Shown here one piece after another: positions 6,001-8,834 of a stretch of 8,834 nt of DNA. The position numbers are program-made. The first letter of the stretch is position 1, and every line of letters starts with the position of its first letter. The stretch spans positions 1 to 8,834 of the IMG/VR virus record IMGVR_UViG_2737471846_000017. The stretch is one strand, 5' to 3'. This stretch comes from a virus (lineage: Duplodnaviria; Heunggongvirae; Uroviricota; Caudoviricetes).

Positions 6001-8834
6001 GGCTGGTGCATGTTGGTACTGGCACAATTCGCCTTTGCTGAATATTCCCGATCGGCTGCTACTAGTGTGGCATGCCCCAAATGTAGTGGTACTGGGCGAA
6101 TGGAATGTGAGCAGCTTACACGTAAGGTTTCATACCCATGGGGTAAAGCACCATATTGGGCCAGTCGATCCCGCGCTGTTCGACCGTCAGACTGGGAGAA
6201 ATGGACAGAGGTAACGGAAGTTGTACCAGTCGTTTGCGATGTATGTAAAGGGAAGGGAGTGATAAGTGCCAGGTGTCGTTGTGGTGGAAAGGGAGAGGTA
6301 CTCGACCGCAAAGCCACAAGCGAGCGTGGTGCGCCTGTGTTTAAAATCTGCGAACGTTGCAGCGGAAATGGATTTTCTACGGTACCGTCTACCGCAGCAT
6401 ATAAAGTTGTACTGAAGCGGATACCCGAACTACACGTCAGGACATGGACACGTAATTGGAAGCCGTTTCTTGATTCTCTGGTTGACATTTGTCACCAGGA
6501 AGAGCGTAAGGCCGATATTGCTTTTCAGAATGTGACAAGTTTTGGTAATGATGTAAACTAAACTTAGGCTTTTTGCGATATAGCACTTGATTTTGTCCGA
6601 ATCTGTCATGTATCATTTTGATCATGCGGAATAATGCCTGAATGATTCTGACAGAAAGCCCCTTGAGGGGGCTTTTTTACTTCAATTGGCTAAAAAAACT
6701 TTCGAAATCACGAAGCTCAATCTCGTCTGCTGTTGATGAGTATTTTATCTTATTTGCAATAGGAAGCAGGTTTTTTTTGGTTAAGAACTTACTGGCTTGA
6801 TGTTTCAGGTTTTTTAATCGTATGATTCGTTCTTCGATTGAACTGGCGATTTGGGCAACATTGGAAATTTCTGGGCTTGGGGTTGTTTGCAGATCAATGC
6901 CCTGAATTTTCTTTAGATCTTCTTTGAGCGCAACAAAAAACTTACGAAGATTATTTTCTGGTAAAAGCACATGGATAAATGATACCTTTCCCATGTTGAA
7001 CTCACTTGTTGCTTCTCCAGATTCGCGCATGTGTTTATTCATTGCAAATAGAATTGTTTTGGTTTTCTTATCAGTTTCAACTTCTGATAGACTTACAATA
7101 CCGGTTTGAGATTTTGCCAATAAGCGTATTTCTGCTGCGCCAAGCCTGCCAGAGTAGTTATAGTTTTTACTATTTTCTATAGTAGAAGATAAATAATCTA
7201 TGGTGGGTTTGGTATTTCGTATGTTTTCAATGATTTTTTGCCATTCTTCGAGCTTATTTTTTGCTGTTCTGATAATTTCTCGATTGGTCTCGAGTTGCAT
7301 TAGTTTATTGAAGCTAAGAACATTCTCGCCGAATTCCACACCGAATTCGTTTTTGCCGCATTTATTGCCGATGTTAGTTTCAATGCCGCTAGAGGTCTTT
7401 ACAATATAACCCATTTGATGTGGTTGGTTGCAGCCAGTTAAGCCACAGTGGACTTCTTCCTTAAATTTGTAGTAGCCAATTATTTCCTCAAACTGTTGTT
7501 CTCCTTTATCTATACTGGCAACAAAGTTTGGTCTGGATGTGATTTCTTCCCAGTTATCAAGTTTCTCGATGCCGTTTTCTGTTCTAATAATAATCATGAA
7601 TCACTCCATTCGAAATCGGGAGTGTTCATTTTATCGCCATAAAAACGTGATCTCCATAAGTGATTTAATATTTAATTACTGAATATTATGTGAAGTGGGG
7701 GTGCTTTGCCACGTAGCTTAAGCCCGTCGACGAGCGGGTTTTTTGTATCCGGCATCCTGGGAGCTATACGGAAAGTACACAGAAAGGAAGGTGCGACCAC
7801 AATTAATAACAAAATCTTAAAAATCGCACATGGCACTATTAGTTTTCTAAATATTGTGTATTTTTTGTATTGCAGGATGACCCTGTAACGAAGTTTGCGT
7901 AACAGCATTTTGCTCTACGAGTTTGCCAGCCTCCCCCAGTGGCTGGCTTTTTTATGTCCGTAGCGTCAAAGCAGCAATGTCGCTGGGGCGTCGTGCAATT
8001 GGCGTTGAGCTGGAGAGCGGGCGTTTTGAGCAGACGGTCAGGGAAGTTCAGAATTTAGTCAGTCAGAACGGATGATATTGCAGAATTAGTTACGTACCGT
8101 TATTATCCTGCGCCCGGCCCTTTAGCTCAGTGGTGAGAGCGAGCGACTCATAATCGCCAGGTCGCTGGTTCAAATCCAGCAAGGGCCACCAACCGCCATT
8201 AGCTCATCGGGATAGAACGCCAGCCTTCTAAGCAATCGGTCACTGGTTCGAACCCAGTACAACGCACCACACTTATTTTCCCTCGCTCGCTTTTGCGGAC
8301 CTTTTTTGTATCCGCGCCACGCCCGGCGCATACCAACCACAGAGCCTTTCGGGGGGAGCTTACGGAGTGGTCAGTGTGACTTTCTCTGTGGGCAGATCGC
8401 TCCCGGGCGTTGGCTCACCCACCCAAAGGAACGTCACGATGTTTGGTATTTTTGGTAAAAAAAGCCCGCAGAGCGGCAACGGAAATTAAAAAGTTTGAAA
8501 AACGCGATCTGGCACAGGCGGTGATTAACGCCGCATACCTGGTGGCCTGTGCAGATGGTGAATGTGAGGCTTCCGAGAAAGCGAAGATCGAACAGGTACT
8601 GCGTAATCAGCCAGCGCTGTCCGCGTTTACGTCAGAAATTAATGCGATGAGCGCAACCATTATCGGTCAGCTGGATACGAACTTTAAAACTGGTCGTCGT
8701 GCGGCGTTACGTGAGATCGAGGATGTGAAACACGATACGCGTGAAGCGGAAGATGTGCTGGATGTGGCGGTGGCCATTGCGGAGGCAGAAGGCGAAATTG
8801 AGCCGGAAGAGTGTAAGGTGCTGGAAGAGATTGC

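Follow-up and report, generated by a model that had tools for sequence, protein, structure and literature searches.

A PHROG 7003 gene convergent with the late antiterminator Q in an Escherichia coli prophage, a candidate lysogen-expressed moron

We describe a gene that converges with the late antiterminator gene Q in an 8,834-nucleotide stretch of Caudoviricetes DNA (IMG/VR record IMGVR_UViG_2737471846_000017, positions 1 to 8,834; hereafter the window), together with the phage protein family to which its product belongs, PHROG 7003. The gene (6677..7597, minus strand) encodes 306 amino acids (aa) and is supported as an AT-rich, reverse-oriented accessory gene in the slot between Q and the lysis genes, the position occupied by stx in Shiga toxin (Stx) phages. 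The strongest result of the analysis is the positional pattern of the family, set out below. From position, predicted promoter and composition, the gene is probably a moron of the lysogen-expressed type; that its function is anti-phage is a tentative further step, suggested by sequence and position, to which we give slightly less than an even chance.

In a survey of IMG/VR, which takes in mainly relatives of at least 40% identity, a Q homologue lies convergent with the gene and 89-174 nucleotides (nt) downstream of it in all 33 loci that have sequence on that side, with Q proteins that range from 100% down to 38% identity or come from another, unrelated family. The gene stands convergent right after Q and ahead of the holin gene in Salmonella (five loci), Pectobacterium and Providencia, the Q proteins of the last two being PF06530/DUF1133 and not PF03589. 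A homologue of 24% identity occupies the same slot in vB_EcoS-611R1 (ON470586, L014 5001-5945), behind a Q that is 69% identical to that of the window. The vB_EcoS-611R1 Q is near-identical in its middle and divergent over its last ~60 residues.

Other members of the family lie elsewhere. One distant member directly follows an S24-peptidase repressor gene in the same orientation, which is the position of rex in lambda. In a Klebsiella phage, a Pseudomonas Hollowayvirus, a metagenomic prophage and one further genome, the member has the repressor gene on one side and the leftward early genes on the other and runs on the strand opposite to them, a site presumed by analogy with lambda to be the PL operon. 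The late and early-left lytic operons of lambdoid phages run under antitermination. Further members stand opposite to Ogr/Delta and holin genes, in a satellite-like element with capsid, small terminase and archaeo-eukaryotic primase (AEP) genes, and, in Burkholderia phage phi644-2, close to the phage end near a two-gene pair with RelE/ParE-type (PF05016) and helix-turn-helix (HTH; PF01381) matches. In a P2-like prophage (GCA_021441065.1, L066 6001-6921) a 29%-identity member lies between gpA/DinI and portal genes, convergent with an unannotated 274-aa gene; this is the old/tin locus of P2-like phages, which has been shown to be an anti-phage hotspot (Rousset et al. 2022, PMC9122126). That the homologues sit at classic lysogen-expressed or defence-hotspot sites is supported by these contexts, whose common denominator, as read from gene order, appears to be a prophage or satellite accessory slot; in most of them the gene is either transcribed together with the repressor gene or faces, antisense, the transcription of a lytic operon.

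What stands beside the gene varies: the holin gene in Salmonella, stx2f in the Stx2f phage phi467, and two unrelated small genes in L022, a prophage of a pigeon E. coli. The small neighbouring proteins of two homologues are mutually dissimilar. Because neighbours are not conserved, we regard the gene as a single-gene unit; a conserved two-gene system was considered and rejected, the neighbours being unrelated and without informative Pfam domains.

The gene and its module

The open reading frame (ORF) starts with ATG and has exactly the coordinates, strand and length given in a preliminary description of this DNA, which had been made from the sequence alone. Three complete E. coli chromosomes, those of 2013C-4830, 90-3040 and 2013C-3492, are 100% identical to the window across the region, and RefSeq lists the product there as hypothetical protein WP_032207072.1. 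The low guanine-plus-cytosine (GC) content remarked on in that description is borne out: in 300-nt windows GC is 0.34-0.39 over 6450-7650 against ~0.50 on both sides, and the ORF has a GC of 0.365, with 0.35 at third codon positions (GC3), compared with 0.50 and 0.44 for Q. By our own arithmetic, a 306-codon open frame would arise at the local composition with a chance of ~1e-10. The ratio of nonsynonymous to synonymous substitution rates (dN/dS, or omega) is 0.10-0.12, with dS of 0.67-1.26, against the pigeon E. coli orthologue and a Salmonella orthologue; by part, among close orthologues, it is 0.04-0.08 in the N-terminal domain and 0.14-0.18 in the C-terminal third, and thus purifying throughout. 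Because of the open-frame probability, the low dN/dS and the ~900 homologous clusters of equal length, we judge that the frame is not due to chance; it is a real gene under purifying selection. The gene and the features around it are as follows.

5731..6561, plus strand: late antiterminator gene Q (PF03589-type), convergent with the ORF; 'antitermination protein' in RefSeq, with a Salmonella orthologue that carries Pfam Antiterm and 69% identity to the Q of vB_EcoS-611R1.
6587..6616, plus strand: pR'-like late promoter (-35 TTGATT, 18-nt spacer, -10 TATCAT), from a consensus scan and conservation; a predicted function.
6653..6680, no strand assigned: tR', a GC-rich hairpin with a T-run that overlaps the ORF stop codon (6677-6679), from fold energy and conservation.
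6677..7597, minus strand: 306-aa PHROG 7003 gene, whose product has an N-terminal CCHC beta domain (predicted zinc) and a helical remainder, from ORF call, PHROG match, AlphaFold2 (AF2) model and alignments.
7604..7607, minus strand: Shine-Dalgarno (SD) sequence GGAG, 6 nt from the ATG, from the sequence.
7628..7656, minus strand: predicted sigma-70-like promoter of the ORF (-35 TGGAGA, 17-nt spacer, -10 TAAAAT), from a consensus scan and conservation.
7720..7741, plus strand: terminator-like hairpin upstream of the ORF promoter, by the right edge of the Q-ORF module, from a hairpin scan and homology breakpoints.
7962..8075, plus strand: remaining 3' end (stump) of a DNA methyltransferase gene, whose truncation is not due to the ORF; a RefSeq pseudogene, at L001 (E. 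coli 2013C-4830) 10363-10476, offset 2401.
8116..8191, plus strand: tRNA gene with CAU anticodon (ileZ-type), the first gene of the tRNA block found ahead of stx in Stx phages, from ARAGORN and Rfam.

The stop codon of Q (6561), pR', tR' and the stop codon of the ORF are all packed into 115 nt. The pR' block is nearly invariant between the E. coli and Salmonella modules, and its -35 and -10 elements are retained in the divergent module of vB_EcoS-611R1; the tR' hairpin, which folds with -15.4 kcal/mol on the plus strand (z -2.4) and -12.7 kcal/mol on the minus strand, is retained with different stem sequences in both Salmonella and vB_EcoS-611R1. Given the conserved promoter and hairpin and a local layout that is the same as that of the annotated phi80 pR'/terminator, we read this element as pR'-tR', the place where Q of lambdoid phages loads onto RNA polymerase. 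What had been called the terminator of Q is indeed a terminator hairpin after Q, only it is the tR' of the late promoter, placed behind the pR'-like sequence. As the ORF lies beyond tR', a Q-modified polymerase that reads through must transcribe the whole of the ORF antisense. The hairpin may also act as a shared bidirectional terminator, for the short pR' transcript and for the ORF mRNA.

Upstream of the ORF, the motif AATGGAG is invariant in five aligned orthologous regions and kept in 14 of 19 distinct upstream sequences, and TAAAAT is retained in most upstream sequences, down to homologues of 40% identity. The block of promoter and SD sequence is conserved between E. coli and Salmonella, and the sequence farther upstream diverges. 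The GGAG is the gene's own ribosome-binding site, as had been proposed, and from the conserved block an independent transcription unit, also part of that proposal, is predicted. The 5' untranslated region (UTR; 7595-7630, minus strand) has a predicted hairpin, CACUCC/GGAGUG, that buries the SD sequence and start codon (-12.7 kcal/mol, z -3.8), with a compensatory CGCUCC/GGAGCG pair in Salmonella (z -5.9); its stem is mismatched in most orthologues, and we do not rely on it as a conserved element.

A comparison of related prophages over the interval from Q to the tRNA block, which the preliminary description had called for, was carried out and yielded no empty site; it yielded a deletion remnant in 2015C-3121 and an intact methyltransferase gene in L022. 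Similarity of 84% to L022 and to phi467 runs unbroken from 5814, inside Q, through the ORF to 7727-7751. Because of this continuity Q, pR', tR' and the ORF are taken to travel together, and they appear to be co-inherited as a single module. The same Q/pR' allele (at least 80% of its length) is found in 19 of 5426 complete E. coli genomes, 15 of which carry the ORF. In 2015C-3121 (L021 3001-3182, equivalent to window 6600-6749 and 7679), which has a 98%-identical Q, 30 nt stand in place of window positions 6750-7678 and 73 nt survive from the 3' end of the ORF; since this end persists, the locus is a deletion remnant and not an empty site, and it seems to have lost the gene plus its promoter cleanly. 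2012EL-2448, whose match covers this short stretch too (window 6600-6749), may have undergone the same deletion. To judge from vB_EcoS-611R1, exchange seems to involve the antisense gene, tR', pR' and the C-terminal part of Q as one cassette.

A recent date for the insertion first supposed does not fit this history, given the unbroken similarity, the ORF in 15 of the 19 genomes with the same Q, and a deletion in the one comparator examined that lacks the ORF. The supposition that the ORF abuts, and had displaced, the methyltransferase gene is refuted: the stump is 365 nt from the ORF start, L022 has in order the orthologue, two small genes and a full-length methyltransferase gene of 1059 nt, and the ORF-deleted 2015C-3121 has the same 3' stump. 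From 7679 through the stump to the tRNA block, the window is homologous to 368 phage records, most of them of Stx phages. The intact gene beside the L022 orthologue, the stump in the ORF-deleted strain and the Stx-phage homology from 7679 together make the methyltransferase truncation a separate event.

The placement at the stx position, by contrast with these two suppositions, stood up. In phi467 (LN997803, L002 5323-6197) an orthologue of 81.5% aa identity lies between Q and the stxA/stxB genes of stx2f. This orthologue is annotated as two overlapping coding sequences and aligns in three tblastn pieces, and it may be either a frameshifted pseudogene or the product of a sequencing error. The gene thus behaves as an accessory one: of 5426 complete E. 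coli genomes 15 have it, at least one related prophage has lost it by deletion, and in phi467 it is split.

The slot itself brings up one alternative function, that of a host-directed lysogenic-conversion factor which, like many morons at the site between Q and S, would serve stress tolerance, metabolism, or colonisation and virulence. Its position in the stx slot of Stx phages, directly upstream of stx2f in phi467, would suit such a factor, as would its AT-rich composition, its own predicted promoter and its occurrence in gut and plant Enterobacterales and in Pseudomonas and Burkholderia phages. But the protein has neither a transmembrane (TM) segment nor a leader and so is not a surface or secreted product like Bor, Lom or Stx, one member lies in the P2 old/tin defence hotspot, and all contexts that were read are those of phages or satellites across very different hosts, which favours a phage-directed role. 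We consider a conversion factor unlikely.

The protein and its family

The protein matches PHROG 7003 over its full length (E 5.4e-101; residues 1-305 against profile positions 1-308 of 309), an assignment that names the family without explaining it, the annotation being "unknown function". A word-indexed search found 97 clusters, every one from Enterobacterales and labelled 'hypothetical', and an exhaustive profile search found 903 clusters (50% identity level) at E <= 1e-3 and 515 at E <= 1e-10, nearly all of ~300 aa and matched end to end. Nine distant homologues that were tested, including Klebsiella, Pseudomonas and Burkholderia phage proteins, led to PHROG 7003 only. An extra domain in partially matching homologues was tried as an idea and rejected.

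The first impression that the protein belongs to no recognisable family holds across Pfam (scanned to E 10), NCBIfam and PADLOC, each with no match, and the PDB, where sequence searches with the single protein, an N-domain profile and a family profile gave chance-level matches only; the N-domain and three homologues likewise had no match in scans of the family libraries. The proposed check against Pfam and PADLOC was extended from the protein to a set of 49 diverse homologues (the set used throughout for residue invariance, for these scans and for the hhalign profile) and brought up no defence homology. The 49 relatives had no Pfam match at E <= 0.01 and, in PADLOC-DB 2.0, only five different single-member matches, the best at E 0.0015. 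This library is described as holding known and candidate systems; models for RexAB, Old, PD-lambda, HEC and PDC are expected in it. Literature searches by accession and by gene position turned up nothing specific to a PHROG 7003 gene. The gene is annotated as hypothetical everywhere, and the literature found has no account of the protein family or of its strict convergence with Q; single-gene morons that lie antisense within a prophage lytic operon are an arrangement already known.

An AF2 model built with the family alignment is confident, with a predicted local distance difference test score (pLDDT) of 88 and a predicted template modelling score (pTM) of 0.75. It has an N-terminal beta domain at about residues 1-86 (strands 2-6, 9-13, 36-49, 60-68 and 73-77; helix 80-85) and long helices at residues 87-304, in agreement with the helical remainder expected from the sequence. 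The structural check suggested beforehand succeeded in its first half, the model, and a Foldseek search of BFVD then gave no match below E 1e-3; the fold of the N-domain is weakly chromo/SH3-like. The conserved part of the family is the N-terminal 90 residues, where pairwise identity averages 42%, compared with 19-23% elsewhere in the protein, and Y43, C51, C56, H60, G63, G77, C80, G81 and N276 are invariant in the 49 homologues. An N-terminal cluster of Cys and His residues had been pointed out before, and all of it is present (H50, C51, C56, H60, C80), with all but H50 invariant; H50 is variable among the homologues. Cys51, Cys56, His60 and Cys80 are probably a CCHC set of metal ligands, a pattern from which we infer stabilisation by zinc.

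Several features bear on what such a protein could do. Charge is uneven, with an acidic N-domain (pI 4.9) and a basic C-terminal third (pI 9.6); there is no TM segment in the protein (the top 19-residue Kyte-Doolittle mean is 0.8), no hydrophobic N-terminal leader in its sequence, and no invariant acidic or catalytic-type residue across the 49 homologues. We read the protein as probably soluble and cytoplasmic, one that would bind rather than catalyse, and the conserved N-domain beside a variable helical region hints at a constant core joined to a part that determines specificity, against which stands the purifying selection seen throughout the protein among close orthologues. Could it instead be a toxin, or an HNH-like homing endonuclease, and the gene a selfish element or addiction gene? 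The Cys/His cluster lies on a beta-beta-alpha-like unit, its pattern H50-C51...C56-N57-x-x-H60...N78-x-C80 is superficially like zinc-stabilised HNH motifs, and one homologue, that of phi644-2, is near a putative toxin-antitoxin pair. An HNH or beta-beta-alpha-Me nuclease was nonetheless rejected, the catalytic positions not being conserved in the 49 homologues, and with no conserved catalytic residues and no partner gene a selfish element of either kind is very improbable.

Possible functions

The conserved predicted promoter, the terminator hairpin at the 3' end, the GC of 36% against 50%, and the deletion in 2015C-3121 are the marks of a moron. In the mechanism we favour, the lysogen-expressed anti-phage moron, the gene would be transcribed from its own promoter in the lysogen, and its product would protect the lysogen intracellularly against superinfecting phages. 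The protein would bind a component or an intermediate of the invader, acting as a stoichiometric inhibitor or as a trigger of abortive infection, and would neither cut nor modify it. During late lytic growth of the resident prophage, Q-modified polymerase would pass tR' and transcribe the ORF antisense; antisense transcription of this kind, whether late or early-left, would damp the gene and so avoid self-targeting.

Two described systems come close to this design. TaiEcA, which is phi80 orf63, lies antisense in the Q operon, is expressed in the lysogen, and is lowered by Q overexpression (He et al. 2024, PMC11364771); in Pseudomonas phage JBD26, Tab is encoded on the minus strand within the late operon, as a moron that has a promoter of its own and that the prophage expresses (Patel et al. 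2024, PMC10884400). Both are non-enzymatic blockers of tail assembly (PMC11364771, PMC10884400), and the Tai family, which was defined by homology at 22-74% identity, is missed by DefenseFinder and PADLOC according to its authors (PMC11364771). Like Tai, the ORF is a single-gene moron of prophages and satellites, without an enzymatic domain and missed by PADLOC; it lies antisense in a Q-driven 'noncontiguous operon', with Q, pR', tR' and then the opposite-strand ORF in order; and it belongs to a very divergent family found at several hotspots, satellites included. The logic proposed as shared is that the gene is ON in the lysogen and damped by Q-driven transcription.

The two proteins differ in most other respects. 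TaiEcA has 204 aa and the ORF 306; Tai genes come after the lysis genes near cos and next to an ati counter-defence gene, whereas the ORF is directly at tR' with no conserved partner; and the target of Tai is known, the central tail fibre or needle. Membership of the Tai family was rejected, as there was no BLASTP alignment, hhalign gave a probability of 0.06% for the 49-sequence profile against phi80 orf63, and the PHROGs are different (5483 and 7003). Tab, set beside the ORF by description, is alike in architecture as a minus-strand late-operon moron with its own promoter, but it has 83 aa, lies between terminase genes, has an anti-Tab partner and is found in JBD26-like phages only. By this comparison the ORF would resemble Tai and Tab in architecture at most, not by homology.

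Other prophage defences share positions with the family: lambda RexAB after cI, and P2 Old and Tin at the old/tin locus, are found where PHROG 7003 members also lie, and Owen et al. in 2021 reportedly placed bstA in the cI-proximal region, where some members are found as well. The ORF has no sequence or fold similarity to RexAB, Old, Tin or BstA, and it has no ATPase/TOPRIM as in Old, no membrane partner like RexB, and no PADLOC match. Membership of the BstA family was rejected, no KilA-N domain being found with Pfam (to E 10 for the protein and to E 0.01 for the 49 relatives).

Several points weigh against an anti-phage moron of this design. There is no homology to known defence proteins in PADLOC-DB 2.0 (none for the protein, five weak single-member matches in the 49 relatives). 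The hotspot position is circumstantial, for toxins (stx among them) and other conversion genes are found at these sites too. Selection on the orthologues is purifying (omega ~0.1), not diversifying. Finally, the level of the phi80 Tai protein was unchanged after mitomycin induction (PMC11364771), so that antisense silencing may be weak.

The close association with Q invites a different explanation, in which the protein regulates development of the prophage itself: acting on antitermination or late transcription, for example as a Nun-like or anti-Q factor, it would either silence late genes (lysis, stx) or terminate the transcription of related superinfectors. Such a regulator would explain the ties to Q, to cI and to the first gene leftward of the repressor: strict adjacency to Q holds for two unrelated Q families, a member is also found beside Ogr/Delta, and others lie beside cI or just past the first gene left of the repressor. 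A small zinc-binding domain would be compatible with binding to RNA polymerase or nucleic acid, and the C-terminal part is basic (pI 9.6), though the N-domain is acidic. Yet the gene is dispensable and patchy, and relatives that share its Q have it in deleted or split form; several members are far from regulators (at P2 old/tin, at the cos end of the Burkholderia phage, in the satellite-like element), and no search gave any similarity to Nun, Q or N. We hold a regulator to be improbable, at about the level of the conversion factor discussed above.

A role in the lytic cycle, as a counter-defence protein that inhibits a host defence system, for example, or as another helper, is more improbable still. 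Small non-enzymatic binders with variable regions are typical of anti-defence genes, and the family is confined to phages; but the gene is antisense to each lytic operon or co-transcribed with cI, the opposite of what a helper needs, and its predicted promoter is sigma-70-like and phage-independent.

If the anti-phage moron is taken as the starting point, a wider proposal can be framed, which we regard as possible but doubtful: that PHROG 7003 is a new and widespread family of single-protein prophage immunity, in which self and non-self are set by position, and in which the CCHC chromo-like domain is an undescribed effector or sensor module. As part of the same proposal, placement in the path of antiterminated lytic transcription, or in the cI operon, would turn the gene ON in the lysogen only. 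In a bolder variant, the protein would act on antiterminated RNA polymerase as a Nun-like exclusion factor aimed at Q. Were the function to be confirmed, a large unnamed family would join the prophage-encoded immune repertoire, and a third, non-homologous case of an antisense gene in a lytic operon, after Tai and Tab, would support this design as a general means of avoiding autoimmunity. The gene also occupies the slot that controls expression of Shiga toxin (it lies upstream of stx2f in phi467), where its promoter, or convergent transcription, could affect expression of the late operon and the toxin. Even without a function, the strict Q-convergent placement is a simple rule for finding similar genes.

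The surrounding prophage

The window comes from a degraded lambdoid E. coli prophage without stx and with IS3 insertions. The preliminary description had all genes from cII to Q on the plus strand and mostly coupled in translation; this is right for the larger ORFs and for the RefSeq genes from O to Q, many of which overlap by 4 nt, but the window opens in the replication gene and not in cII. Just to its left, in 2013C-4830 (L001 1153-2366), an IS3-family element lies between cII and the replication gene, and farther downstream the same prophage has more IS3/IS600 copies and frameshifted late genes. Because of these insertion sequence (IS) copies and frameshifts, the prophage that carries the window is taken to be defective; the 306-aa ORF is nonetheless intact.

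At 3213-3411 (plus strand), Rfam identifies the Hfq-binding small RNA isrK (3226-3300, 76.6 bits), a C4 antisense RNA (3327-3411, 75.1 bits) and, at 3213-3265, the a1/b1 target of C4. All of these are directly upstream of the antirepressor gene ant (3465-4142) and make up a P1/P7 immI-like antisense control module within a lambdoid nin region.

At the right end, ARAGORN and Rfam call only one tRNA gene (8116-8191), after which related prophages have two tRNA-Arg genes. The alignment of window positions 8195-8310 (plus strand) with the two Arg genes of the 2015C-3121 locus falls into two pieces that overlap, which points to the remnant of a tRNA-Arg gene altered by decay or recombination.

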